Origin: an uncultured Candidatus Poseidoniales archaeon
GTDB lineage: Archaea > Thermoplasmatota > Poseidoniia > Poseidoniales > Poseidoniaceae
Length of the DNA stretch: 64,000 nt
Reading direction: 5' to 3'
Assembly (NCBI GenBank): GCA_902625885.1
Contig: CACODE010000002.1
Span: 8,454 to 72,453 of the forward strand
Each line of letters starts with the position of its first letter. Within the stretch, counting starts at the first letter, position 1. The notes beneath the pieces are model-generated. The model was given only the letters and a program-made list of their open reading frames with translations. It was not told the origin of the DNA and ran no database searches. Position numbers and translations under genes: made by a program. This document shows, one piece after another, positions 12,340 through 64,000 of this stretch.

Positions 12340-12400
12340 CGCTTCAATTTGACGCGACATGTTCAAACCCTAGGAGCCTCTGTTCTGTCTCGGTGAGAAG

Positions 12401-12904
12401 GTGGGAAGAGTACGCGGCGACCCAATCACCACGGCACTGGCCCACCCTACGCGTCGTTCAGCCTACGTCGCGTTGGCTCAACAAGAGGAAATGAGCACCG
12501 TCCAGTTGCAAAAGGAACTCGGTGTTGACCGGTACAACCTCTACCACCACCTCAAGAAACTTGCATCGCTTGAGTTGATTGAAAATCACCGAGATGAAGG
12601 TCGCGCCCGATGGTGGAAAAAACGCTTGCACGTTGATCTTCCCGAATTGCTGAACGCCACAGCACCGCCCGCCGCCGCTCAAGAAAGCCTCCCGGCATCG
12701 CCCGCTCGGCAAGCCACGACTTTGGCGTCGCTTGCCGTGGACGAGGAAGGCAGGGACGTTATCGTTCTGAACCTCGAAGGTTCCCGGGACCAAGTGAGCG
12801 CCAAACAGCTCATTGTCCGCCTTTCCGAAGAGTTTGGATTGACCCTTGATGTCCCTTGGAATTTCATCCCAGAACAACTGGTGTTGTACTCCAAAAAGAA
12901 GTGA
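12401..12904 (+). CDS. ArsR/SmtB-like winged-helix transcriptional regulator
   Basis: GTG start. LAHPTRRSAYVALAQQEEMSTVQLQKELGVDRYNLYHHLKKLASLELI is a typical ArsR HTH. The C-terminal ~80 aa are unassigned. Confidence 0.7.
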   Translation: MGRVRGDPITTALAHPTRRSAYVALAQQEEMSTVQLQKELGVDRYNLYHHLKKLASLELIENHRDEGRARWWKKRLHVDLPELLNATAPPAAAQESLPASPARQATTLASLAVDEEGRDVIVLNLEGSRDQVSAKQLIVRLSEEFGLTLDVPWNFIPEQLVLYSKKK

Positions 12905-31683: not shown

Positions 31684-32073
31684 TCATTGGTCCGAGGACG
31701 GTAAGAATTGAGCCAAGTTGGGTGGTTGCCAACCCTCGGGTTTGAGCACTTTCCCGTCCTCTCGACGGAGGACCTTACCGTCCACCAACTTGGCCATGTT
31801 GGACCGGTGCACCTCATTGAAAGCATCGTCGTAAATATTCTGCATGCCGTGGTTGATGATGGTTCCAGCAAGGATGTAGGCAATGTCGGCCAGAGCGTCC
31901 AACACCTCCACCAAATCGCCTGCACGGGCAGCCTCGGCGTATTCCTGCACCTCTTCGGTCAAGAGTTTGATTCGAAGTTCAATCAGTTCGTCAGGACCAA
32001 GTCCTGGCGTGTCAAGTTTTGGAATCTCAAAGGCTTGATTGAATTCAAGCAGCGAAGCAACGATGGGGTTCAT
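31684..32073 (-). CDS. MazG-like nucleotide pyrophosphohydrolase family protein
   Basis: ELRIKLLTEEVQEYAEA...EVLDALADIAYI EExxE/D-type helices, 129 aa. Confidence 0.6.
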   Translation of the reverse strand: MNPIVASLLEFNQAFEIPKLDTPGLGPDELIELRIKLLTEEVQEYAEAARAGDLVEVLDALADIAYILAGTIINHGMQNIYDDAFNEVHRSNMAKLVDGKVLRREDGKVLKPEGWQPPNLAQFLPSSDQ

Positions 32074-32141
32074 AGCCCCTGTTTCTCAAGTCGGCTCAAG
32101 AACCTTCACCACGTCAACCTCGAGACGAGGAACTGGAGGCA

Positions 32142-33062
32142 TCAATCGATGGCAAGACCCGCTGGTTCAACAGCGAACCCGTAGACCAAAGCGGCCAGAA
32201 GCACCCACCCCGTGAGCATGGAGACCCGAAACAGCACCGTTTGAAAATCGGCGAAACTGTTCATTCGAAGCACAACGAAGATGTTGGCCAGCGCCATGCC
32301 TGCGGCGGCCGCAAGAAACCAGATGCCGTCCATCGGGTCGGCAACGGCAAAACAAGCGAACCAAAGGAGGGAAAGCTGGACGGTCGTGCGCGTGGTGGCC
32401 GCTTCGCCGAATGCGGACGGGAAGGAATGGATGCCTTGTTCTTGGTCGCTTTCCATGTCCATGCGTGCGTAGTTGATATCAAAAGCCGCAATCCACAGCG
32501 CTACGCCAATGGAAATGGGCAGGATGGTCGGCGCCCAGAGAAACTCACTACCGATTGAGAGGTTTCCCGTTAAGGCACCCCAGCCGTGAACATCAGCAGC
32601 AATGGCCACCCAAGCACCGGCTGGAGCGAGGCCCAGGCAAAGCCCAAGCCAGAAATGGCACCCCCACGTGAAGCGCTTCATGTACGGGTAAATCACGAAC
32701 GTGAGAACGGGCAGCCAAGCCATCATCAAAGCCACCCTGTTCAGCAGGCCGGCGCTGATGAGGAGCATCGCAAGGAACACGGCTGCGAGGGTCCAAGCTG
32801 TTTGCATGCTCATGCTGCCAGAGGCGAGGTGCCGCCCCTGCGTGCGAGGGTTGGCAGCGTCAATGTCTCGGTCAATAATTCGGTTCAGGGCCATCGCCAA
32901 CCCTCGGGCACCGACCGCAGCCAGCAAAATCCACAGAAGATCGATTCCAGGGTCAAGACCAAACTCTCTCAACGCGATGAAATAGCCCATCAGGACGAAC
33001 GGAAGCGAAAACAGGGTGTGTTCAACCTTGATGAAGGACAGGACTTGTTTGATGTCCATCAC
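32142..33062 (-). CDS. UbiA-family aromatic prenyltransferase
   Basis: NRIIDRDIDAANPRTQGRHLASG first Asp-rich motif, 8-9 TM segments, 4-nt overlap with the upstream UbiD gene. Confidence 0.8.
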   Translation of the reverse strand: MMDIKQVLSFIKVEHTLFSLPFVLMGYFIALREFGLDPGIDLLWILLAAVGARGLAMALNRIIDRDIDAANPRTQGRHLASGSMSMQTAWTLAAVFLAMLLISAGLLNRVALMMAWLPVLTFVIYPYMKRFTWGCHFWLGLCLGLAPAGAWVAIAADVHGWGALTGNLSIGSEFLWAPTILPISIGVALWIAAFDINYARMDMESDQEQGIHSFPSAFGEAATTRTTVQLSLLWFACFAVADPMDGIWFLAAAAGMALANIFVVLRMNSFADFQTVLFRVSMLTGWVLLAALVYGFAVEPAGLAID

Positions 33063-51643: not shown

Positions 51644-53923
51644 ATGGGCCTCTTTGAGGGACACAGGTTGACCATCGTCGGCGTGGTTTCGGCGCTCGTG
51701 CTGGTCTCCAGCCTCGGTTACGAGTTCCTTTCCGACCACGAAGAAGAGGTGAGTTTCAGCATTGATAACGACCTCATGATGAACGACATCAACGAGCTCG
51801 CTTCCTTTGGACCGAGAATTGCAGGTTCAAGTGAGGAAGCCGATGCCACAGCCTACATCAAACAGCGGTTTACGGACATGGGCTTGACCAACGTGAACAT
51901 TGAAACCTTTCCAGTCACCGGAACGTGGTTTGTCGATGCGGAGCCTGATGAGCACCAGATATTGATGCATGCGCAACTCGAGATGGGGGTGCAGAACGGT
52001 CCCGGCCTTCCCGACGGTACGGCGGGCTCCGGGCGCATCGCCGTTGATGAAACGGGGAACATCAACCACATTGAGTCCTTCACCTACCTCGGCTATTCGG
52101 GTGCGAATCACAAGCACGACAACATGTTGACGTTCATCGGTAACGGTTCCGCCGATGCGTTTGCGAACACGAACGGTGGCGACCTCACCGACCTAGCGAT
52201 CATGATCAACTACGACAACATGCGCAACCTGTCTGACATCTACAAGGACGCTATCGACCGGCAGGCTGGCGTGGTGATGATTTACACCGAAGGGGTTGAG
52301 ACCCCACCGTTCCGAAGCGTCACCGTTCAAGAAAACGGCGCCACTGTCCCGTTTCCTGACGCTTACAACGGCGACTATGCCGACCAACTCATTCCGTTCA
52401 TCTACATCTCTGAAAGCGTGGCCATGACCTTCCACGACTTCATTGAACAAGCAGCCGACGACCCCACGCTTTATGCCTCGTTGGACGGTTTTTGGGAAGG
52501 CAACAATGTCGGAACGAGGAACGTCCAAGTCGTCACTGCTGAACTCCCGGGAACGGGTGACGGCACCATTATGCTTGGAGCGCATCACGATTCCGCCTAC
52601 ATCAGCCCCGGGGCGGTTGACAACGCCGTGGGTGTTTCACAACTCCTTGAAATCGCCTCACAACTCAGCACGCTTGAGTTGGAATCCACCGTCAAATTTG
52701 CCACATGGGGTGGTGAGGAACTCGGCATGTTGGGTAGCCAAGCCTACATCAACGCCCACCAACAAGAAATTGACGACTTGGACCTTTACATCAACCTGGA
52801 CTCAACAAACCTTGACCCGCAGAAGGGATTGGGAACCCTCGGTATTGAAACCTCGGACGAGCGGTTGGTCGACTCCATTAGCGGCATCAAAAGCAGGGTT
52901 CTCGACCAGGGGAAATGGAACGATTACGCCGCCACCGTGGCGGTGAGCGATACGGGGAACAGCGACCACCGTTCGTTCAATCAACACGGCGTGACAACCG
53001 TTGGCTTGTTTGGATGGCAGTACGATGAAAACCATCGCCAGACCGACACCCCAAACATCGTCAATCAAGAGGGGCTTGACCTCGCCACGGAAATCGTGCT
53101 GCAGGTGGTCGTCGCCCAAGGCGGGCACCAAACCGGTTCGGAGCCACTGATTCAGATTTCTGGATTGGAAGGCGAATCTGAAAGCTGGGTGTTTCCGTTT
53201 GTCTTGGCGCTGTTGGCCGGCCTTGCCACGGGCATTGGCGGGCTCATCGTGTACATCGTGAAAGAGATCAGCGCCGAAATGATGGCGTTTCTTTTGGCCA
53301 TGGCTGCAGGCGTGATGCTTCTCGTGTCGGTGTTGGACCTTTGGCTCGGTCAAGCCGGGGAAAACGGCTTCCTTCCCATCACGCTTTCTTTCGGCGTAGG
53401 TGTCGCTCTCGTTCTGGGCATCAATCGATACACGGACAAACAAGAAGACGTCTCCAACATGACGCAGGAGAGAAAACTGTACCGGTCGGGTATTCTTACC
53501 GCCATTGCCCTCGCCATCCACAACTTCCCCGAAGGCCTCGCCATGGGTGTGGCGGTCCTGGAGTCGGCACAGTACGGTGTCGTGTTGATGGCCGCCATTG
53601 CGCTGCACAACATTCCGGAGGGCATCGCCGTTGCTGCCCCAATTCAGGCAGGTGGAGGTGGGCGGCTAAAGGCCACGATGATCGCCACCATGACCGGCTT
53701 CACCGAACCGCTTGGGGCGTTGTTTGCGCTGCTTGTTCTCGGCTCCATCCTTACACCGTTCATGGTTGGCTGTTCACTGGCGTTTGTTGGCGGCATCATG
53801 ACGGTCGTGGCCGCCAAAGAACTGATTCCACAAGCTCGCGCCCAAAACCGACCGCGATACATGGTCGTTGGTGCCGTCTTTGGGGCGGCCGTCATGCAGA
53901 TCAGTTTGCTCCTTCTTGCATGA
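51644..53923 (+). CDS. Fusion protein: extracytoplasmic M28-family zinc aminopeptidase plus C-terminal ZIP (ZupT-like) metal transporter
   Basis: N-terminal anchor, then M28 motifs (LGAHHDSAYISPGAVDNAVGVS, WGGEELGMLGSQAY, NLDS, NSDHRSF). From about aa 500 there are 7-8 TM segments with the ZIP signatures AIHNFPEGLAMGV and ALHNIPEGIAVAAP. Confidence 0.8.
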   Translation: MGLFEGHRLTIVGVVSALVLVSSLGYEFLSDHEEEVSFSIDNDLMMNDINELASFGPRIAGSSEEADATAYIKQRFTDMGLTNVNIETFPVTGTWFVDAEPDEHQILMHAQLEMGVQNGPGLPDGTAGSGRIAVDETGNINHIESFTYLGYSGANHKHDNMLTFIGNGSADAFANTNGGDLTDLAIMINYDNMRNLSDIYKDAIDRQAGVVMIYTEGVETPPFRSVTVQENGATVPFPDAYNGDYADQLIPFIYISESVAMTFHDFIEQAADDPTLYASLDGFWEGNNVGTRNVQVVTAELPGTGDGTIMLGAHHDSAYISPGAVDNAVGVSQLLEIASQLSTLELESTVKFATWGGEELGMLGSQAYINAHQQEIDDLDLYINLDSTNLDPQKGLGTLGIETSDERLVDSISGIKSRVLDQGKWNDYAATVAVSDTGNSDHRSFNQHGVTTVGLFGWQYDENHRQTDTPNIVNQEGLDLATEIVLQVVVAQGGHQTGSEPLIQISGLEGESESWVFPFVLALLAGLATGIGGLIVYIVKEISAEMMAFLLAMAAGVMLLVSVLDLWLGQAGENGFLPITLSFGVGVALVLGINRYTDKQEDVSNMTQERKLYRSGILTAIALAIHNFPEGLAMGVAVLESAQYGVVLMAAIALHNIPEGIAVAAPIQAGGGGRLKATMIATMTGFTEPLGALFALLVLGSILTPFMVGCSLAFVGGIMTVVAAKELIPQARAQNRPRYMVVGAVFGAAVMQISLLLLA

Positions 53924-55242: not shown

Positions 55243-55455
55243 ATGAAGAACGTTGGTGGCAAGGAAAGAGCCCTACGAGCCGTGTTTGGTTCGTTTGTTG
55301 TGGTTGCTGATTTTCTTGCAAACGTGCAGATTGAGATTCTGTTCCTCATCGTTGGCTTGTGGGGTGTGCTCACCTCTGCCTTCGGCTACTGCCCGTTTAA
55401 TTGGATGCTGAACCGAAACACCTGCGCCATCGACATCCCAGCGGCTCAGGCCTGA
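55243..55455 (+). CDS. DUF2892/YgaP-like small membrane protein
   Basis: NVGGKERALRAVFG...GYCPFNWML pattern typical of DUF2892. 70 aa. Confidence 0.6.
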   Translation: MKNVGGKERALRAVFGSFVVVADFLANVQIEILFLIVGLWGVLTSAFGYCPFNWMLNRNTCAIDIPAAQA

Positions 55456-55521
55456 TCGATGATTTGGCGTCTACCTCATCGTGGTCGAGCGTCCACTCAC
55501 AGGAAATCTTGGCGAGATAAA

Positions 55522-55866
55522 TCAGGATTGTTCGGCAGGGTTTGATTGGTTGCTGAACAGGATGCTCGCCGTTGCGTTAAACAGGATGTCCTCGGGAATT
55601 TCAAAACCCGCAGCAACGAACGAATGGATGATGTCGGTTTCTCGTTCCTTGTAGGCTTTTGATGAACGAAACGCCTCCAACGTCATCTCGTCCATCCACC
55701 GTGTGAAGACGATGATTCGCTCGCTGTCTTCGGCAAACGTTGACCCGACGCATCCCTGTTCAACGGCAGCCGACAGAAAATCCACCATGGCACCGTGCAT
55801 TTCAGACGTAATTGTTCTGTCGAATTTGTTGGTGATCCACATCCTGATGACGGGCGAGGTATCCAT
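55522..55866 (-). CDS. Hypothetical protein, possibly ABM-like (dimeric alpha/beta barrel)
   Basis: IIVFTRWMDEMTLEAFRSSKAYKE is reminiscent of antibiotic-biosynthesis-monooxygenase domains. Weak call. Confidence 0.3.
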   Translation of the reverse strand: MDTSPVIRMWITNKFDRTITSEMHGAMVDFLSAAVEQGCVGSTFAEDSERIIVFTRWMDEMTLEAFRSSKAYKERETDIIHSFVAAGFEIPEDILFNATASILFSNQSNPAEQS

Positions 55867-56016
55867 GCTCTGCCCACGGCATGAAGCCATTTACGCTTTC
55901 CTGTTGGGGTCTTTGTTAGAAGAAAACAGGCCCATTCAAAATGCACGAGGGGACCTTTCCATGGGTAGCGTCTGAAAAGGCCCACAGCAAGCCCTATGAT
56001 TTGCCAATTCCTGAGC

Positions 56017-56041
56017 AATGGGCATTCGGATAGACCCTCTG
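56017..56041. repeat. Left terminal inverted repeat of the cassette
   Basis: See the cassette entry. Its inner 11 nt (CCCTCTGCTTA, 56035-56045) are also the perfect inverted complement of TAAGCAGAGGG at 56389-56399. Confidence 0.7.
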
Positions 56042-56088
56042 CTTATACGTATAGAATGGTATATCAGTGATTTATTGGTGGAACATAC

Positions 56089-56385
56089 ATGGACATCTTT
56101 TCGATTATTGTATTCGTAGTATGTGTCCTTGTTGTTAGAGCAAAGGTGTTCAATGGTTATTTTGTTGAGAGGCAGTTTAACCCAATTCAGCGTTTTTTGA
56201 TTTCATTTCTTCTTGGGATTATGATTGTGATTGTTGTGAATGTAGTTGGATTACTGATCGCAATTCTTGAGTTGGTGGGTGGAGATGATTACTTCAATAT
56301 TTTTTCAACTACATTGACTTTGACTGGCCTTTCCACCAGAGATATTGCTGCTAAAATTTCTAGTTTTTTGAAAACTAGCGACTGA
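56089..56385 (+). CDS. Small 3-TM membrane protein (cassette gene 1)
   Basis: 98-aa AT-rich ORF flanked by the 11-nt inverted repeat pair 56035-56045 / 56389-56399. Confidence 0.5.
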   Translation: MDIFSIIVFVVCVLVVRAKVFNGYFVERQFNPIQRFLISFLLGIMIVIVVNVVGLLIAILELVGGDDYFNIFSTTLTLTGLSTRDIAAKISSFLKTSD

Positions 56386-56388
56386 AAC

Positions 56389-56408
56389 TAAGCAGAGGGC
56401 CCCCTCTG
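56389..56408. repeat. Hairpin CAGAGGG-cc-CCCTCTG
   Basis: 7-bp stem and 2-nt loop, immediately after the stop of gene 56089..56385. Confidence 0.7.
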
Positions 56409-56449
56409 ATTAAATGGGTAGGCAAAGGGTACGGACTGATGACCCGTCT

Positions 56450-56470
56450 AATCAGAGGGACCCTCTGATT
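56450..56470. repeat. Perfect 21-nt palindrome AATCAGAGGG-A-CCCTCTGATT (likely bidirectional terminator)
   Basis: Lies between convergent genes and overlaps the stop codon of gene 56470..56730 by one nucleotide. Confidence 0.75.
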
Positions 56471-56730
56471 CACTCTGCGTCTTTCGCCTCTGCAATTTCT
56501 TCCTTCTCAACAACGGCGAGATAGTATGATGTTACGATGTTAAGCGCACCAAAAATAATCAAAATAAGACCGAGGAGGCGAGTATTAACAGCAACGAGTT
56601 CTGACAAGTTCGGATCATCAACAATATTCCCGAAAATTGGACTGTTCATCATGAAAGCAATGCCCATCACAATAAGGACAACCTTGCCCGCCAATTCGTT
56701 CACAAACCTCTTCAGGGCACTTTCCGACAT
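56470..56730 (-). CDS. Small 2-TM membrane protein (cassette gene 2)
   Basis: 86 aa. VVLIVMGIAFMMNSPIF and LLGLILIIFGALNIVTSYYLAVV segments, with an acidic C-terminus. Confidence 0.5.
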   Translation of the reverse strand: MSESALKRFVNELAGKVVLIVMGIAFMMNSPIFGNIVDDPNLSELVAVNTRLLGLILIIFGALNIVTSYYLAVVEKEEIAEAKDAE

Positions 56731-56835
56731 GTTTCATCCACAATGCACATGCATCATGAAGATATTGATGATGACCGAAAATTATCGTTGAGGCGAAAAT
56801 GTGGTGGTTTAAGCAGTAAATCAAAGGGTAAATGC

Positions 56836-56907
56836 ACAAACCCACTGCTCCGTTTTGACCCAATCAGAGGGCTTGCAGTGGGCTTTGTCATAGCCTACCC
56901 TCTGATT
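56836..56907. repeat. Nested inverted repeats upstream of the AIPR gene
   Basis: ACAAACCCACTGC (56836-48) pairs with GCAGTGGGCTTTGT (56875-88, one indel). AATCAGAGGG (56862-71) pairs with CCCTCTGATT (56898-907). Confidence 0.7.
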
Positions 56908-57044
56908 CGTACCAGTTTAATCAGTGTGTTGAACAATTATTTCAATGGCGAGGCCGCGCTCGTGACGGGATTCGCCGTCGATGAAGTCGCTGACTTTGGA
57001 CATGTAAATCCCAATTATGACGCTTATTTCAACACTTTGAGCAG

Positions 57045-57054
57045 AAATATAATT
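57045..57054 (+). promoter_or_regulatory. Candidate TATA box for the AIPR gene
   Basis: aaatataatt, 36-45 nt upstream of ATG 57090. Confidence 0.25.
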
Positions 57055-57089
57055 AGAATCATTGAATAACACGGCACCTATGCGATGTC

Positions 57090-59054
57090 ATGGATGTTGC
57101 AGAGTGCCAAGATTACTATCTTGAGTGGAGTGGCCATCATCGAGATGATGTCCCAGCACATATAGCCGCTGATAAAAAACAAAAAAGAGCACTCGAATGT
57201 ATGTTGATGCGAGATGTGATTTATTCTGAATTCGGTATCAGAATAGAATATGCAACTGCGCTGAACGATTTTCTTCGTTATGACGGACCAGGGGATGGAG
57301 GATGCGATGAGCATATCATCGATGATGTGGGCCAAAGAGTAATTTTAATCCAATCAAAAATGAGCGATATAGCTCCAGATGGTTCGTGGACAATGGACTA
57401 CCATATGGATGCGGGGGAGTTGAGCCGTATTGAAACATTTGTCGACAATATACTGGCAGGAACTGCCAAAACAGAGGTTTCGGCAGTACGAACAATCGCC
57501 GCTGGATCAACACGGGAAACTGAGTTGCACGACAGGATCGATCAAATTCATGCAGCCATTAATGGCGGATACGATGTATGTCTAGTTCAGTTGTGCTCTG
57601 GCACTTTTGCCGGACATTGGGAAGCAACCCAAAAACCTGCGATTGTAGCAAAAGGTTGGGATGGTCGCGCTATTGGTTTGGAAGATATCGCTCATTGTGC
57701 AACTGAAGCATTGCAATTAGATGCAACTGGTGGAGCACCAGACCCTATTACACTTAATTTCATCACATCTCATAGTTCAACTGATGACGATGATATTATT
57801 CACGGATTCATTACTGCCTCTTCTCTTGATTCTGCTGTATATCAGGAGGGGTGGAAACTAACGCGCCAAAATCTGCGTCATTTTAAGGGAACAAATGCAA
57901 CAGCAGCCAATTCTGGAATGGTGGAGACACTGAATAACTGTCCTGAAAAATTCCACTTATTTAACAATGGATTGCGGATTACGTGTAGTGCAATGGAAAA
58001 AATCCAGGATACCACAGAAGCAGGTGCTGCTGGGAACATCGATGTTGAAGAGTGGCAAATCGAGAATGCGCAAATCGTAAATGGGGGGCAAACTAGTTTC
58101 TCGATTCGAAGATATAACGGACCATCGAATCTTGTTGATGTCAAAATTGGTTGTGTCCTCATTAAGGAAGAAGATGAAGGGGTGTTGAGGAATATCGCTA
58201 GATATAGCAATACCCAAGAAGCGCTGGATGATTGGGACTTCCACGCAGATAGTGATGAATTACTGCTGTTGAAGGACAACATTGACTTAATTCAATTTGA
58301 TGTCTTGGGGCATCAAAAATCATTCTATTTTGATCAAAAATCAGGTGCCTTTGAATTCCTAAGTCCAGCAGAAAAACAACAATACAGGATCCAAAGAAAT
58401 GCTGGAAAGGCGATCCACTACCGGTTGCACCCTTCTGATTTCGCCAAAGCAAGTTTAGTGATTAATAGTGAGCCATCTGTTGCAAAATCTTCCGCTAAAA
58501 AATTTCACTCTACCAGTGCAACAGGAAGATATAATGATATTTTTGTTAACCAACCTTACTCGCCAAAACCTGTGCTCTACACAATGATTTTGCTTCATCG
58601 TTGTAAAGCACTATTGAAGACTCAAGTTGACGCTGGTGCTCCAGCATTCTACAATCAAGCGGTAGCGCACCTGTCAAGTCTGTTCCTAGACTTCATCCTT
58701 AAAATCTGCAACGATGATCTTGACGATTGGAACGACACAATAGAAGGATACTTCGATGCAATAGTGTGGCATGATGGTGCTCAGGGCAAAAAGATCAACC
58801 AACTCGGTTGTGAAAAATTTGATCTCTGGTTCAACACAATTATAGCAACATGGGGCGCACACATGCATGGTACTCATTCGGTCGCTTTACAAACTCCCAA
58901 CTCTTATTTCAACGGTGAAACCTCATACACCCATTGTAGCACTTGGTTGGATGCGTGGATAGTAGGCAACCAAGCAGCGCCACATCCACTTGCAGCTCAA
59001 CCCCAGTTTGCAGGACAAAACATGCAAGATGCAATTAATGCACAGTTTGTTTGA
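57090..59054 (+). CDS. AIPR-family abortive-infection phage-resistance protein
   Basis: 654 aa. N-terminal nuclease-like motif GDGGCDEHIIDD...VILIQSKM. Central NLRHFKGTNATAANSGMVETLNNCPEKFHLFNNGLRITC and IVNGGQTS match my recollection of the AIPR (PF10592) core (NNGITI, IVNG.QT). Confidence 0.75.
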   Translation: MDVAECQDYYLEWSGHHRDDVPAHIAADKKQKRALECMLMRDVIYSEFGIRIEYATALNDFLRYDGPGDGGCDEHIIDDVGQRVILIQSKMSDIAPDGSWTMDYHMDAGELSRIETFVDNILAGTAKTEVSAVRTIAAGSTRETELHDRIDQIHAAINGGYDVCLVQLCSGTFAGHWEATQKPAIVAKGWDGRAIGLEDIAHCATEALQLDATGGAPDPITLNFITSHSSTDDDDIIHGFITASSLDSAVYQEGWKLTRQNLRHFKGTNATAANSGMVETLNNCPEKFHLFNNGLRITCSAMEKIQDTTEAGAAGNIDVEEWQIENAQIVNGGQTSFSIRRYNGPSNLVDVKIGCVLIKEEDEGVLRNIARYSNTQEALDDWDFHADSDELLLLKDNIDLIQFDVLGHQKSFYFDQKSGAFEFLSPAEKQQYRIQRNAGKAIHYRLHPSDFAKASLVINSEPSVAKSSAKKFHSTSATGRYNDIFVNQPYSPKPVLYTMILLHRCKALLKTQVDAGAPAFYNQAVAHLSSLFLDFILKICNDDLDDWNDTIEGYFDAIVWHDGAQGKKINQLGCEKFDLWFNTIIATWGAHMHGTHSVALQTPNSYFNGETSYTHCSTWLDAWIVGNQAAPHPLAAQPQFAGQNMQDAINAQFV

Positions 59055-59385
59055 TAATAGTGAGATTTGTTCTTAAGAGAATCCTATGTGTTTCTCACAT
59101 TTCAAGTCTCGATATCTAGAAAGTCCTTGCACGCATCAATTGCTTGACGTTCATGTCGGCCATACCTTGGGACTTCGGCTATTTCTAAGATATCAATCGC
59201 GCTTAGATAACCAGAGTTATGAGTGGGTTAAGCAATAGTTTCAATGGATTTTCATTCGCCTCAAAGCGGGTGTGCAGTGACTACCGACTGCCAACCCTGT
59301 TTGGCAAAGGGGGGCCCTTTGCTAAGCTGGTAAAATGGACTGCTGCCTATACACGTTTTTTTTGCCTTTTTCTACTAAATACATC

Positions 59386-59395
59386 TATTTTAAAT
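59386..59395 (+). promoter_or_regulatory. Candidate TATA box for gene 59418..59900
   Basis: tattttaaat, 23-32 nt upstream of ATG 59418, suggesting a leaderless or short-leader transcript. Confidence 0.3.
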
Positions 59396-59417
59396 CAAAA
59401 CTGTGCATAGAAACTTT

Positions 59418-59900
59418 ATGTCAAGCTTAGGGTTCTTGGCAGATATTACCATAATTATTGTTGGTTTTATTTTACTCTACAAATTCCGTAAGCCGATTGC
59501 AAAACTATTTGCAAGAATTCCGCTCTCTGCAGTTTTTCTTGCTCCTCTTGTTTCGCTTCCGTTTATCTTTCTTGAAGAAACTATCAATTGTATGGATTCT
59601 GGCGACGGGCTCGGTTGTCGGATGACAACATGGATCAATGTTGTTCTTCTCATTCAAGTGTTTATTTTATGTCTGATTGTCCATAAGAAAAAAATGACTG
59701 ATATTAAGTGGCCATTATTCTGGTATGCGGTAATTGGAGTTATTTGGGAGATGACTCTTGGTGGATTATCTGTACTTGTTTTAACACTGAATCCCTTCAT
59801 GTTATTCATGGGTCCATATGTGATGGTGAGTTATGCGTTTTTAGCAGTAATTCCACTCACAATTGTGGTTTTACGTAATACTGTATATTCCGAAGATTAG
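59418..59900 (+). CDS. Five-TM membrane protein (cassette gene 4)
   Basis: AT-rich ORF. The track starts at GTG 59403; ATG 59418 (MSSLGFLADITIIIVGFILLY) is preferred. Confidence 0.5.
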   Translation: MSSLGFLADITIIIVGFILLYKFRKPIAKLFARIPLSAVFLAPLVSLPFIFLEETINCMDSGDGLGCRMTTWINVVLLIQVFILCLIVHKKKMTDIKWPLFWYAVIGVIWEMTLGGLSVLVLTLNPFMLFMGPYVMVSYAFLAVIPLTIVVLRNTVYSED

Positions 59901-59920
59901 TGATTAGTTTAGGGTCTTGT

Positions 59921-59945
59921 CAGAGGGTTTATCCGAATACCCATT
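59921..59945. repeat. Right terminal inverted repeat of the cassette
   Basis: cagagggtttatccgaatacccatt is the reverse complement of the left repeat at 23 of 25 positions. Confidence 0.7.
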
Positions 59946-59970
59946 ACTCTGGTATTAGCAAATCAAAGTA

Positions 59971-59989
59971 CTTGCAGTGGGTCTTGTCA
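59971..59989. repeat. 19-nt direct repeat copy, partner at 56872-56890
   Basis: cttgcagtgggtcttgtca versus cttgcagtgggctttgtca (17/19). In addition, gggtcttgtcaga occurs exactly twice, at 59912-59924 and 59979-59991. Confidence 0.65.
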
Positions 59990-60049
59990 GACGCTACTCT
60001 CGATGACGTATAGGAATACGAGGGGAGCCCTTGGAAACGAACCTTCTGC

Positions 60050-62890
60050 TCAATTCGCTTCCCAAAACGGGCTTTCTTTGCTCGTCTCTTCCTGCAGATC
60101 TCGGTCGTAGACCAAGTAGGTGGTGTCGTGCGTTTCAAAACGGTTGATGTCACCGACCTTATGCTGATGTTTGATTTTGCTGCTGGTGATTTTTTTGGTG
60201 AATTCGTTTCGGTGATCGGGAACGAGGCCGTTGAGGCGCTGGCCGTCAAATTCAGCCTCCTTCATCCAAACCTCCTCTTTGCTGTCGGCACGAAGTTCGA
60301 AGTCCACGCGTTGCTGCAAGGTGTAGCCGCCGTCAGAGAAGAGACGGAGGCTCCAAGGACCCTGTTCTTGGCCGGGGAGGGTGGCGTTGCTGACGTCAAT
60401 GTCTCTCAGGTAGCGCCAGCGGTCGCCGTGGTTGCGGTCGTCCGCATTCACCGGATACAGGCCCACCCAGGCATCGTTGTGCCCGGGAGGGTTGGTGATC
60501 TTGAATCGGACGGGTTGACGGTGGTTGAAGGACAGGACCTCAAGGTTCGGATTCGCATTGCTTGAGGCTCCAGTTTTCGCCACGGACGAGTGCCCTTCCT
60601 TGGACTTCATTCCTATCGTGGCGGTAAGAACTATCACTAGTGCGCCAATACTAAACATTACCGCACCCGGAATCAACATGGCGAGTCTGCCTTCGCCCGT
60701 GGATATGGATCCTATGATGAGAAGCGGTAAACCCATGATGACCAAGGTAATGCCAACGCCCGTGGCAGCGACCGCTCTTCTCTTGGAGGATGAGGAAGGC
60801 ATGGATTTGAATCCCATATTCAGGAGGGCGAACAGGCTAACAATGAACGTAAAGCCGCCTATACCCATGAATATGGCGCCGGGAATAAGCATCCCAAGGA
60901 CTTCCTTCTTCTCCTCGTTTTGAATCCACATCATGACCTCGCCACCATCGGAGTTTTGTGCCGTGATGGTGGTCGTGCCGGCCATGCAACCGTGGCATGC
61001 TCGTCCAATCTTGATGAGCTCTCTTCCATCGTGATAGCGCGATTCGGGCCAAGCGCCATCCATAGTGCTGCAGCCACTCCCCTCGTGTGCAGTTTCGAGA
61101 TAGAACACCTGTCGGGTTTCGTCTGGAGCGTTGACGCTCTGATACCCCGTCCACGGGTCAGACATCCAGCTTCCAGAGTGGGTGGCGTTCACGATGATGT
61201 TTTCACAGTGGTCATAGATGCCGTTTGAATTGAAATCGACGGCGCTCCCCTCGACATAAATTCCCCATCCTAAATCGCCTTGCCCGTCGCTGTCTTTGAT
61301 TTCCAAGGTTGCGGAGGTCATGCCGTCGCTGAGGCCCTCACCCAATCCGGCGATAAACAAAGGAACGCTCGGTGCGAGCAGAACCATACCGATGAACAAG
61401 GCGATTAATGCCGACCGCCGACTTGATTCCAGGATGGCTGGGTCAACCGGTTCAGGCGGCTTCACATCGAAGTCTTTCCGTTCGTGGAGGGCGTGCCCTC
61501 CGTTGGAGAACACCCGTATGCTCCAAGGGCCTGCTGCCCGCTTGGGGAACGACACGTTGTTGACATCGATGTTGCGAAGCCATTTCCATCGATGGTTTTC
61601 CGCTCCGTGGTCCTGGTCGCTGGCGTTTGGCGGGTAGATGCCGACCCACGCGTCGTGGTTGGTTGGAGGGTTGTTGATCTTGAAACGAACGGGTTTGTTG
61701 GCCACGGCTTCCAGAATTTCAATCGATTCCCTCGCTGATGATACCGCCTTGCTCGAGTGGATTTTATGCGCCGTGTGGATGGTGACATCTTTTCGTTGGA
61801 CCAGCGTGTATCCGCCGTCTGAAAAGACACGTATGCTCCAATCGCCAGCAGTCAACTCCCCGTTTGATAAGGATACGTTGTTAACGTCAACATCCCTAAT
61901 GTATTTCCACCGAGGAGGCGCCCCATGATCCTGATCGCTTGCACCCGTTGGATAGATGCCCACCCAAGCATCGTTGTGGCTTGGGGGATGGTTCAATTTG
62001 AAGCGGACAGGTTTACCCAGCACGGCTTCCAGCACCTGAATTGGTTCGCCTGAAGCAGACGTGGAGGTACGGCTTTTGTTGAGGTGCCGCTGAATTCGAG
62101 ACGCAGCGTCGGACGCTTGGTCGCCGTGCCTGACCGTTGGCGCGGGATGTGCGCCACCGGGTGCTCCCGGATGACCCCAGTCAACATTTTCCCATACGCC
62201 TTCACGCGGGGGAACACCGATCTTTCCACCGGTATGCGCAGCATAGAGAACCCCTGCTCTTGAGATGATCATCCACTTCCTCCACTCCGGGCGTTGATGG
62301 TAAGGACCGGTGTCTTGGAAAGCGATGAAAATCTCAGGGTTCTGAGTATGCTGGTAATGGCCGGCGATAGTGCTGAAGTGTCTATTCTCATGTTTGCCGG
62401 GCATGAACTCATAGTTCCCGTTCACTTCCGGACTTCCGGCTTGAGCGACGATTACATACGAGGGCATAGATGCTGTAGTTGTTGCAGGGTGTTGTTGACC
62501 TGTAGCGCCCTGCTGCACGAACTGGATGTCTTCCCAGCCCCCAGGGGGCGCATGGTCCCGGTTCCACTGTGCCGTGCCATCAGACTGCGCGCTCAGGTAC
62601 TTCCCGTGGCAGGACTTCAAACAGACCGTGTTGTTGCCACGGTCTTCAACGCTGAACTCCTCCCAGCCATTTGGCGGTGCCGATCGGCGATTGATTTGCA
62701 CGCTGCCGTCGGGCTGTGCTGAAACATACATGCCGTGGGCGCCCCTGAGGGTGATTTTACCGCCTGGCCGCTCCTCAACGTGGAAGTACTCCCACGCACT
62801 TGCAACAGGTCTGTTCCATTCAGCGCGCCCGTCAGGCTGTGCGCTCAGAAACTTCCCGTGTACGCTGCGAAGCGACACGATACCCGACAT
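60050..62890 (-). CDS. Large 4-TM protein: N-terminal fascin-like beta-trefoil, unassigned domain, three ~88-aa repeats, Cys-rich ectodomain
   Basis: 946 aa. Three ~40-aa trefoil repeats (LRSVHGKFLSAQPDGRAEWNR / LRGAHGMYVSAQPDGSVQINR / LKSCHGKYLSAQSDGTAQWNR). Repeats with PVRFK(L/I)(N/T)(H/N)PP..(N/H)DAWVG(I/L)YP...D..HG..(R/H)(W/R)(K/R/W)...(D/N)(V/I)DV.N..(L/F/T)...(D/G/P)(P)WS(I/L)R(V/L)FS(D/N)GG at aa 283-371, 389-476 and 782-865. TMs at about aa 493-516, 665-690, 708-729 and 736-760. Confidence 0.7.
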   Translation of the reverse strand: MSGIVSLRSVHGKFLSAQPDGRAEWNRPVASAWEYFHVEERPGGKITLRGAHGMYVSAQPDGSVQINRRSAPPNGWEEFSVEDRGNNTVCLKSCHGKYLSAQSDGTAQWNRDHAPPGGWEDIQFVQQGATGQQHPATTTASMPSYVIVAQAGSPEVNGNYEFMPGKHENRHFSTIAGHYQHTQNPEIFIAFQDTGPYHQRPEWRKWMIISRAGVLYAAHTGGKIGVPPREGVWENVDWGHPGAPGGAHPAPTVRHGDQASDAASRIQRHLNKSRTSTSASGEPIQVLEAVLGKPVRFKLNHPPSHNDAWVGIYPTGASDQDHGAPPRWKYIRDVDVNNVSLSNGELTAGDWSIRVFSDGGYTLVQRKDVTIHTAHKIHSSKAVSSARESIEILEAVANKPVRFKINNPPTNHDAWVGIYPPNASDQDHGAENHRWKWLRNIDVNNVSFPKRAAGPWSIRVFSNGGHALHERKDFDVKPPEPVDPAILESSRRSALIALFIGMVLLAPSVPLFIAGLGEGLSDGMTSATLEIKDSDGQGDLGWGIYVEGSAVDFNSNGIYDHCENIIVNATHSGSWMSDPWTGYQSVNAPDETRQVFYLETAHEGSGCSTMDGAWPESRYHDGRELIKIGRACHGCMAGTTTITAQNSDGGEVMMWIQNEEKKEVLGMLIPGAIFMGIGGFTFIVSLFALLNMGFKSMPSSSSKRRAVAATGVGITLVIMGLPLLIIGSISTGEGRLAMLIPGAVMFSIGALVIVLTATIGMKSKEGHSSVAKTGASSNANPNLEVLSFNHRQPVRFKITNPPGHNDAWVGLYPVNADDRNHGDRWRYLRDIDVSNATLPGQEQGPWSLRLFSDGGYTLQQRVDFELRADSKEEVWMKEAEFDGQRLNGLVPDHRNEFTKKITSSKIKHQHKVGDINRFETHDTTYLVYDRDLQEETSKESPFWEAN

Positions 62891-63122
62891 GATTTCTCCA
62901 CAACCATGCTGGATATGGGGTTTGTGTCAGGATTTGCATGTTCGATTCACCCGATATTACGATCTTTGCCGCACTCGGCCTATCCTCTACGGCGGGGTCC
63001 AATCTGACGGACACCGTTGAATTGACTGCAGCATGCTCAAAATGCCATCAAAACAGCCTTCTTCGTTGGTTTTGCGGCCATCATCGTTAATTAGCAAGTG
63101 AACGGACAGGTCATTGATTAAG

Positions 63123-64000
63123 ATGCTAAAAATTGAATCCACACCCGCAAAAGTTTGCCTCGGCATTTCGGCTTTTCTGTTCCTGCTTTACTCGGTCACG
63201 TTCATGTTCTTTTCCATGGGATACGTGACCGGGGGCGACACCGGCTTTGCGCTCCTCGACAACGGTCTTGCTGGCATGCTTGAAGACCCTGCCTACGGCA
63301 AGGGTGGCGTTGAGAGCAGCTTCAACGGCGTGCTCTTCTTTGGGATTTTCATCTCCACCATGCTCATTTTCTTTGAAGGGGCCAAAGGCAAGTGGACCAT
63401 CATGCTGCCCGTCATCATCGGCAGCATCACCATGACGGCCTGCATCTGGTTGAATTGGAACCCGGACAGCGAGGCAAGCGCGGCCCCAAAGTACGTTTCA
63501 ATCCTCGTGACGCTGGTTTACATTGGCGCTTACGCACTGTTGCGTGAAGAGGGCGTCAACGAGGGTTTGTCGGATTACAAGCCGGGGTTGAAGGTCAACG
63601 ACAAAGTGGCCATGCTGGCGCTCGTCCTCCTTGTGTTGTCGGGGTTGTACTATGCCTTGCGAATGATCTTCACGCCCGACGACGTAATTGCTCAAGGTTT
63701 CCCGGCGGGCGAGGAGTGGGTGAGTAAACTTGACGACACTCCAGGTTTGGGAGCACCGCTACCTACTACGGTGTCGGTGACCGGTGCCATGATTCTCGTG
63801 TACACGCTCTGGTCAGCGCTGGTCCTCACCGACGGTGCCAAAGGCAAGTGGACAGTCATGCACCCCTCTGCCATGGCCTTCATCGCTGCCACGGTCTCCA
63901 CGTACGTCGGACTCGTGGCCGGCCTATCACGGACGACCAGCGACACCAACAAGATGGATGTGTTGACGATTCCTCTGGTGATGCTTCTGGTCCTCATCAG
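63123..64000 (+). CDS. Hypothetical polytopic membrane protein with internal duplication; 3' end runs off the window
   Basis: Own translation from ATG 63123 is open to the window end, so it is missing from the ORF track. Duplicated segments GAKGKWTIMLPVIIGSITMTA and GAKGKWTVMHPSAMAFIAATV. Confidence 0.6.
   Translation, partial: MLKIESTPAKVCLGISAFLFLLYSVTFMFFSMGYVTGGDTGFALLDNGLAGMLEDPAYGKGGVESSFNGVLFFGIFISTMLIFFEGAKGKWTIMLPVIIGSITMTACIWLNWNPDSEASAAPKYVSILVTLVYIGAYALLREEGVNEGLSDYKPGLKVNDKVAMLALVLLVLSGLYYALRMIFTPDDVIAQGFPAGEEWVSKLDDTPGLGAPLPTTVSVTGAMILVYTLWSALVLTDGAKGKWTVMHPSAMAFIAATVSTYVGLVAGLSRTTSDTNKMDVLTIPLVMLLVLI

Follow-up and report, generated by a model that had tools for sequence, protein, structure and literature searches.

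What does a 946-residue protein that joins a sugar-binding fold, a repeated domain and four membrane-spanning segments do in an uncultured marine archaeon? The question is raised by a gene on the minus strand of contig CACODE010000002.1, from a Candidatus Poseidoniales (Marine Group II) archaeon, of which a stretch of 64,000 nucleotides (the window) was analysed. An earlier reading of the letters alone, called the sequence-only reading here, had described a membrane protein with a fascin-like beta-trefoil, an unassigned domain of about 110 residues, a Cys-containing ectodomain and three copies of a novel repeat, and had proposed a sensor or receptor. Our analysis shows that the gene is real and encodes an intact marine archaeal membrane protein. 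The earlier description is largely accurate, and two parts that it left as unknown fall in known families: the trefoil can be assigned to CBM92, a carbohydrate-binding module (CBM) family with a measured function, and the repeat is SKICH-like. New and uncharacterised are the architecture, the predicted orientation in the membrane and the orphan ectodomain. The full-length family is most likely restricted to Poseidoniales, heavily domain-shuffled, non-enzymatic and membrane-anchored.

Module borders were set with hidden Markov models (HMMs) built on the query's own modules and with a hydropathy scan, which marked four hydrophobic stretches (residues 492-518, 664-694, 705-732 and 734-763). The layout consists of a trefoil (1-128), a mid domain (140-245), three repeats (283-371, 389-476 and 782-866), an ectodomain (519-663) and a tail of 80 residues; it agrees with the order and coordinates given in the sequence-only reading to within one residue. 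The parts of the gene are listed below (TM, transmembrane helix; AF2, AlphaFold2; pLDDT, predicted local distance difference test).

60050..62890, minus strand: whole gene, 946 residues and the stop codon (60050-60052), from the open reading frame (ORF) listing, relatives and substitution ratios
62507..62890, minus strand: CBM92-type (bacterial fascin-like) beta-trefoil, residues 1-128, from Pfam Fascin, PDB 7zoi_A and 7zoh_A and the motifs of PMC11039641
62156..62473, minus strand: mid domain, residues 140-245, predicted to be beta-rich, no Pfam or PDB match
62045..62155, minus strand: linker, residues 246-282, low-complexity and predicted to be mostly disordered, with one low-confidence helix (pLDDT <50)
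61778..62044, minus strand: R1, SKICH-like beta-sandwich, residues 283-371, from HMM mapping, identity and an AF2 model (pLDDT 77-92, seven strands)
61463..61726, minus strand: R2, SKICH-like, residues 389-476, ending about 15 residues ahead of TM1, from HMM mapping and tblastn
61337..61417, minus strand: TM1, helix A of hairpin 1 (MVLLAPSVPLFIAG...GEG), residues 492-518, with SSRRS just before it, from hydropathy, charge and alignment
60902..61336, minus strand: ectodomain, residues 519-663, an insertion at the outer turn of hairpin 1, from alignments and AF2
60809..60901, minus strand: TM2, helix B of hairpin 1 (LGMLIPGA...), residues 664-694, followed by KSMPSSSSKRR, from hydropathy, charge and alignment
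60602..60778, minus strand: TM3 and TM4, uninterrupted second hairpin, residues 705-763, with helix A ...GLPLLIIG..STGEG, one Arg and helix B LAMLIPGA...
60293..60547, minus strand: R3, SKICH-like, residues 782-866, beginning about 18 residues past TM4, from HMM mapping and tblastn
60053..60292, minus strand: C-terminal tail, residues 867-946, present in one sub-group of the family, no Pfam match

The ORF runs from an ATG start through all 946 residues with zero internal stops. The exact sequence is present in NCBI on a contig of 146,577 bp, and independent assemblies hold one protein that is 98% identical and several full-length proteins that are 70-87% identical to the query. Codon alignments with three relatives (loci L003, L002 and L001) gave ratios of nonsynonymous to synonymous divergence (dN/dS) of 0.08-0.39 for every module; thus all parts of the protein are under purifying selection. 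The linker had the highest values of the gene in two of the three comparisons (0.37-0.48). Synonymous divergence (dS) itself varied within one gene pair, from 0.13 in the ectodomain to 0.92 in the tail against L003 (up to about sevenfold), and the spread between modules was larger still against L002. These differences suggest a mosaic gene, whose modules may have been exchanged one by one through recombination or gene conversion among family members.

The trefoil is built of three repeated subdomains within residues 1-128. The threefold repeat is visible in the alignment, the matched structures are trefoils, and the domain passed Pfam Fascin (PF06268) at 35.3 bits (gathering score 23.1), so the fascin-type trefoil seen by the sequence-only reading stands. 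The best PDB sequence matches were 7zoi_A (6.9e-15) and 7zoh_A (4.5e-14), followed by human fascin (1e-8) and hisactophilin (1e-5). The first two entries, 147-151 residues long, are deposited under 'glycoside hydrolase family 18'; judged by their length and their match to the paper, we take them for the pair of CBM92 domains from Chitinophaga pinensis described in Hao et al. 2024 (PMC11039641). CBM92, formerly called 'bacterial fascin-like domains', is defined as a three-lobed trefoil, in which a WExF motif at the end of each lobe and a nearby Arg form the sugar site. The Trp stacks on a glucosyl unit, the Glu forms hydrogen bonds, and the domains tested bound polysaccharides containing Glc-beta-1,6-Glc consistently (PMC11039641). 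In the query, the lobes end in WEYF (33-36), WEEF (76-79) and WEDI (119-122), an NR pair lies ahead of each motif (26-27, 67-68 and 110-111), and the NRP...WExF segments align with CNRP...GWExF of the CpCBM92 structures.

Archaeal members of CBM92 are already on record, and the published dataset lists proteins of Poseidoniales and Euryarchaeota (PMC11039641). One entry of that dataset, MBV23397.1, clusters at 90% with P0051, which belongs to the query's family. EaCBM92A corresponds to residues 119-254 of MBS73237.1, from a metagenome-assembled genome (MAG) of Euryarchaeota, and is one of twelve domains selected for binding assays (PMC11039641); the trefoil begins at about residue 120 in P0028-type relatives. 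We assign the trefoil of the query to CBM92 because the 7zoi and 7zoh matches beat those to fascin, the WExF and Arg motifs are present and a relative stands in the published set. A mapping to a well-characterised family had been listed in the sequence-only reading among the outcomes that would tell against it, and for the trefoil this is what was found. With the Trp-Glu/Arg sugar motif in all three lobes, the domain is predicted to be a trivalent glucan-binding module. A ricin-type trefoil was considered and rejected, since ricin-type lectin families were not among the matches. Pfam and NCBIfam scans detected no glycoside hydrolase or polysaccharide lyase domain in the protein, which also lacks a signal peptide. 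A literature search returned nothing linking fascin domains with Marine Group II.

The second part to find a place in a known family is the repeat. Its three copies, which lie on both sides of the membrane module, are real and far beyond chance: R1 and R2 share 62-63% identity (tblastn E 2e-33), and R1 and R3 share 53-54% (E 1e-28). DNA identity of a repeat to a paralogous copy in related loci is only about 67-69%; therefore the copies represent an old duplication and not an artefact of assembly. SKICH did not reach the Pfam threshold for the whole protein, nor for any of 12 repeats taken one at a time; the latter gave fn3_PAP alone, at E 0.004-0.012. A profile made from 12 non-redundant repeats was then searched against 1.84 billion representative proteins, a metagenomic search that the sequence-only reading had suggested, and matched 943 representatives at E<=0.001, of which 309 reached E<=1e-10. 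The top 40 or so matches inspected belong to the archaeal family, and lower down appear apparently bacterial proteins in which an N-terminal signal peptide is followed by 3-10 tandem copies. Three proteins matched by the profile, P0157 (1e-39), P0180 (2e-30) and P0245 (1e-18), pass Pfam SKICH (PF17751) at 71.8, 55.3 and 31.0 bits (gathering score 23.4) over the same residues. Comparison by hhalign of the archaeal repeats with the tandem repeats of SKICH-matching proteins gave a probability of 98.35% (E 1e-14, 80 columns).

Structure comparison was less specific. R1, taken from an AF2 model of mid domain and R1, was compared with the PDB by Foldseek, and the SKICH domain of NDP52 (7eaa, 3vvv, 3vvw, 5z7a) was among the top single-domain matches. 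For 3vvv the probability was 1.00, the template modelling score 0.52 and E 0.02; generic Fn3 domains score alike, and no match reached E<=0.001. Sequence searches of the PDB with the repeat profile, with the repeat and intermediate homologues together, and with the intermediates alone returned nothing significant. Because the intermediates match Pfam SKICH over the residues of the repeat profile and hhalign reaches 98.35%, we place the repeat in a divergent branch of SKICH/Fn3_PAP-like beta-sandwiches. It is thus an unnamed subfamily and no new kind of domain. A literature search on SKICH in archaea gave nothing relevant.

TM1 and TM3 share the pattern ..L..P[GS][LIV]PL[FL]I.G....GE[GD], and TM2 and TM4 share L[GA]M[LI]IPGA...G.G; from this sharing, the membrane module is read as two copies of a two-helix hairpin, one duplicated from the other. 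In the second hairpin, a single Arg behind 'GEG' links the two helices, and in the first hairpin the ectodomain is inserted at exactly that point. Lys and Arg beside the TMs that bracket the ectodomain average 6.9 on the side away from it and 1.2 on its own side (Wilcoxon p 3e-15), and the side away from it is the richer one in 82/82 non-redundant relatives. Among 120 relatives, TMs are gained or lost in pairs only, and the number of TMs on either side of the ectodomain is always odd. In every complete relative the first TM comes directly after a repeat, and in nearly all of them the last TM leads directly into another, the exceptions being P0055, P0061, P0084, P0093 and P0102. Because of the charge bias in 82/82 relatives, the acidic ectodomain and the absence of a signal peptide ahead of the 490 N-terminal residues, a topology that places the ectodomain outside the cell, with trefoil, mid domain, repeats and tail all in the cytoplasm, is well supported under the positive-inside rule. 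The sequence-only reading had predicted the same placement for the trefoil and all repeats.

Turned the other way, the protein would be a surface adhesin, with CBM92, mid domain and SKICH-like repeats outside binding algal beta-glucans (laminarin) or particles and the four-Cys domain acting as a small cytoplasmic metal-binding domain. This is a serious rival, although we judge it unlikely. The four invariant Cys of the ectodomain, which include a CxxC, could in principle bind zinc, and the tandem SKICH-like arrays in distant, apparently bacterial proteins lie behind signal peptides; every topology indicator, beginning with the charge bias, speaks for the opposite orientation. Export of a 490-residue N-terminal region that has no signal peptide is not expected. 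The four-Cys domain is moreover strongly acidic, with DxDxDG-type loops typical of extracellular calcium sites, and in two relatives it directly follows an N-terminal signal-anchor helix. One of these is P0147, in which the helix runs straight into the domain; the other, P0387 (243 residues; found in NCBI, JGI and ENA), consists of such a helix, an ectodomain of 39% identity, a C-terminal TM and a short tail. P0387 presents the ectodomain as an independent unit that would be displayed on a hairpin. Another anchor is seen in P0151, in which a four-TM module, read by eye as having its N-terminus inside, is followed by the same kinds of soluble module.

The 145 residues of the ectodomain contain 23 Asp/Glu against 8 Lys/Arg, when the other modules are near neutral. 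In the alignments, four Cys (562, 607, 632 and 635) are invariant, as are two acidic loops, D-x-D-G-x-G-D and D-x-[DN]-x-N-G-x-x-D-x-C-E. Such loops resemble calcium sites of the DxDxDG type and of thrombospondin type 3 repeats. The AF2 model is confident (pLDDT 90.8, predicted template modelling score 0.85) and nearly all beta. Neither Pfam nor a profile search of PDB sequences gave a match, and Foldseek found no significant neighbour in the PDB (best E 0.19, template modelling score <=0.38) or in BFVD (best E 0.037). The weak ectodomain matches are jelly-roll-like: CBM6, CBM22, a collagen-binding domain and viral capsid proteins. In the protein search, the ectodomain profile retrieved 25 mostly short or frameshifted pieces and one informative minimal protein, P0387.

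An outside domain between TMs and large cytoplasmic regions make a receptor-like layout, which speaks for the proposed transmembrane sensor: the ectodomain would detect an external cue, and the cytoplasmic sandwiches and trefoil would recruit partners. The ectodomain is indeed among the most conserved modules in close relatives (94-97% identical, dN/dS 0.11-0.16), and eukaryotic SKICH domains mediate protein-protein contacts. Against a sensor, Pfam and NCBIfam scans of the 946-residue protein detected neither a catalytic domain nor an output domain for signalling (no kinase, HAMP, MCP, cyclase or DNA-binding domain), and no signalling gene is conserved in the neighbourhood. Members without the ectodomain also exist: P0140 has a trefoil, a repeat, a plain hairpin and a repeat, so that the ectodomain appears as an optional insertion and not as the core. 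We consider a sensor rather improbable.

The mid domain remains unassigned, as in the sequence-only reading. It is confined to the query's family and missing in many paralogs, and neither a single sequence nor a profile gave a Pfam or PDB match; a protein search with this domain alone retrieved only 19 short fragments of its own family and no distant relatives. A relation to the 'ILVSEHS..YNGVY' accessory module of paralogs was rejected by BLASTP and by hhalign (probability 2.5%). When single modules were scanned against Pfam (repeats, ectodomains, mid domain, tail and five accessory modules of paralogs), Vps62 alone passed; Lectin_C and fn3_PAP stayed below threshold, with a few chance-level matches.

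The distribution of the family was followed in two ways. The protein search gave 557 relatives, and every match with a named source comes from marine archaea that are uncultured, under the names Candidatus Thalassarchaeaceae, Thermoplasmatota or 'Euryarchaeota archaeon'. The ectodomain profile, searched against one genome per GTDB species, confirmed 27 loci, all 27 in MAGs of Poseidoniales (Poseidoniaceae and Thalassarchaeum); this is the phyletic survey that the sequence-only reading had recommended. Around a core of repeat, hairpin and repeat, the relatives shuffle many modules in varying order, including Vps62 (PF06101), at least four further orphan modules and an alternative polytopic N-terminal anchor.

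Several of these modules deserve separate mention. A C-type-lectin-like module, with EPN and WND motifs and without the canonical cysteines, occurs in P0006, P0143, P0147, P0151 and P0164; Pfam Lectin_C is below threshold on the P0006 copy (E 0.008), but is listed for P0164 in precomputed matches. The polytopic N-terminal anchor of paralogs has a weak TatC-like match (E 0.0012). No significant Pfam match was obtained for the module 'HDPAKAEEFARALGL.VGG.GHPF.G.W.TKGLYAYRSG', which stands at either protein end, for 'ILVSEHS.PKYNGVY...NGKPWYKN', for 'WYVEGN.VKVPKFGSTG' or for the Cys-containing 'CKPGPRLTYADSE..' module. The polytopic anchor and these modules are carried by the relatives P0028, P0030, P0055, P0102, P0061, P0020, P0026, P0141 and P0148.

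One relative stands apart. P0164 (472 residues; L031 6370-7788 and L032 5498-6916) begins with a secretion or lipoprotein-type signal, which is followed by the lectin-like module and a repeat. Its contig also encodes a Por_Secre_tail protein (with the sorting domain of the type IX secretion system, T9SS), a sulfatase, an eCIS_core protein and Mrr_cat_2. Because of the T9SS sorting-domain protein and the sulfatase, the gene content suggests a marine Bacteroidota host, and P0164 points to a transfer of the cassette of lectin-like module and repeat between domains of life. For the adhesin reading, this protein is a favourable example of such modules behind a signal peptide on a contig with Bacteroidota-type genes. 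The known use of CBM92 speaks for that reading as well, since these domains bind beta-1,6-linked glucans and usually sit on secreted enzymes (PMC11039641).

We tentatively favour a non-enzymatic, passive membrane tether or adaptor, with a glucan-binding module inside and a predicted calcium-binding domain outside, and give this a probability of roughly 45%. It is favoured because nothing catalytic or transmitter-like was detected, and the protein offers only a sugar-binding module, spacers and an outward domain. In such a tether, the hairpins would anchor the protein in the membrane, and the SKICH-like sandwiches, which always lie no more than about 20 residues from the cytoplasmic ends of the TM helices, would form a rigid foot beside it. 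The trivalent CBM92 could then hold a glucose-terminated ligand against the inner membrane face; candidates are a cytoplasmic storage glucan, an imported glucan, or a glucosylated lipid or protein. On the other side, the ectodomain, predicted to be stabilised by calcium and disulfide bonds, may bind an envelope or environmental partner at the cell surface.

A number of points weigh against a tether of this kind. We know of no cytoplasmic ligand for it, and of no cytoplasmic glucan in Poseidoniales. EPN/WND motifs of C-type lectins classically need extracellular (millimolar) calcium. The calcium-binding and disulfide-bonded state of the ectodomain is predicted from motifs alone. The third lobe of the trefoil, WEDI, keeps Trp and Glu and has Ile in place of Phe. 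The AF2 model of the mid domain is unreliable (pLDDT about 25-60), and the alignment behind it is shallow (>74% identity). In P0164, the lectin-like module is 62% and the SKICH-like repeat 69% identical to those of the archaeal family, and in nearly all cases on record CBM92 modules are joined to glycoside hydrolases that are secreted (PMC11039641). Together, the context of CBM92, the lectin-like modules of paralogs and P0164 suggest an extracellular role for such modules, and what the tether leaves unexplained is why lectin modules that are classically extracellular should lie in the cytoplasm, as predicted.

The query may belong to a Poseidoniales-specific class of inward-facing membrane lectin scaffolds, an idea that we offer as speculative and doubtful. 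SKICH-like domains on a conserved hairpin would keep CBM92 modules, and in paralogs C-type-lectin-like and Vps62-like modules, under the membrane. Such a system would either link the envelope to a glucan or glycoconjugate of the cytoplasm, or sense outside-type glycans that turn up there. The hairpin of such a scaffold could carry an ectodomain whose fold has no precedent. Detection of outside-type glycans would be loosely analogous to the damage-sensing pair of galectin-8 and NDP52 in animals.

The surroundings of the gene were examined for further indications. Beside it lies a low-GC island (guanine-plus-cytosine content 0.39-0.45, against about 0.55), which the sequence-only reading had called an AT-rich defense cassette; the gene itself, at 0.54-0.575, has the level of its surroundings, as that reading had said. 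The features of the island are the following.

55500-59970: low-GC island
57090-59054, plus strand: AIPR/AbiU-like gene (Pfam AIPR 1.5e-31; PADLOC AbiU 2.3e-15)
56089-56385, 56470-56730 and 59403-59900: small hydrophobic ORFs, from the ORF list

The island is probably a recent insertion, because two related loci, L002 and L003, lack it. L002 (86% nucleotide identity) shares the MMPL-to-ABA4 block and a YgaP-like gene with the window, and the gene is inverted relative to the YgaP-like gene (55243-55453). In L003 (88% nucleotide identity), homology spans 59971-62872 only. In L001, a family member of 71% identity (9929-12900) lies between UbiA and PRA-PH, a site that is empty in the window (32073-32446, a gap of about 370 bp). 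The position of family genes is therefore not fixed among related genomes. When the neighbouring ORFs of 31 loci were clustered, no operon partner emerged and no defence or mobile context recurred; the only recurrent neighbours are housekeeping genes, within one sub-group (pseudouridine synthase, S15 peptidase, MMPL, SelO and glutamine amidotransferase).

A link to conflict, in which the protein would be a virus sensor or decoy tied to the abortive-infection island, is very improbable. Adjacency to a low-GC island with an AIPR/AbiU-like protein first brings it to mind, and extreme domain shuffling, variable position and mosaic dS are traits common in conflict systems. That adjacency, whose recurrence the sequence-only reading had listed as a point to check, is incidental: it was seen at none of 30 related loci and is missing at the close relatives L002 and L003 and at 27 other loci, where only housekeeping neighbours recur. 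The 946-residue protein has no PADLOC match and no detected effector domain, and its modules are all under purifying selection, with the ectodomain among the most conserved.

Three further observations concern the window itself. No tRNA gene lies within 50-64 kb. The region of about 800 bp upstream of the gene (62891-63690) contains no ORF longer than 65 residues on either strand. At 51644-53923 on the plus strand, a 759-residue ORF encodes an unusual fusion of an M28 peptidase domain (7e-34) and, at its C-terminal end, a ZIP zinc-transporter domain (3.5e-22).

Marine Group II archaea are described as among the most abundant planktonic archaea of the surface ocean, uncultured, with a cell biology inferred almost entirely from genes. 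A family that is widespread in this group in many shuffled versions, and that joins a biochemically understood glucan-binding module with domains without relatives, is of interest in that setting. If the predicted orientation is true, a CBM familiar from enzymes that bacteria secrete has found a new use at the cytoplasmic face of an archaeal membrane, which would point to an intracellular glycan or glycoconjugate new to these archaea. If the orientation is reversed, the family becomes a candidate for archaeal attachment to algal glucans such as laminarin. The ectodomain, with a confident model and no structural neighbour, is a good target for structure determination.

Among known systems, the closest in sequence are the CBM92 domains of Chitinophaga pinensis (CpCBM92A/B; PDB 7zoh, 7zoi) and EaCBM92A, which share with the query a single three-lobed trefoil of about 130 residues (typical range of the family 125-150) with WExF and Arg. 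Unlike them, the query has no attached glycoside hydrolase or lyase and no secretion signal; its trefoil is predicted to be cytoplasmic, is fused to a membrane anchor and ends its third lobe in WEDI. Fascin (PF06268) and hisactophilin are also related by score, but fascin is an actin-bundling unit of four tandem trefoils, whereas the query has one trefoil with the sugar-site motifs of CBM92. The repeats resemble SKICH (PF17751; NDP52/CALCOCO2, TAX1BP1, SKIP) and the Fn3-like N-terminal domain of purple acid phosphatase (PF17808) in being beta-sandwiches of about 85-100 residues, and a strand motif, D-[A]-W-[IV]-G-[IL]-[YF], is common to the query repeats and SKICH. They differ in remaining below every Pfam threshold, in a Foldseek score no better than that of Fn3, and in being repeated, at the cytoplasmic ends of TMs, in an archaeon. 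In working principle, the protein may be likened to Stbd1 (TM and CBM20), AMPK beta (CBM48) and laforin (CBM20), all of which have a non-catalytic CBM facing the cytoplasm; the CBM families are unrelated, and the likeness follows from the predicted topology of the query. Stbd1, in which the CBM is tethered to a membrane and holds glucan there, would be the nearest working analogy.

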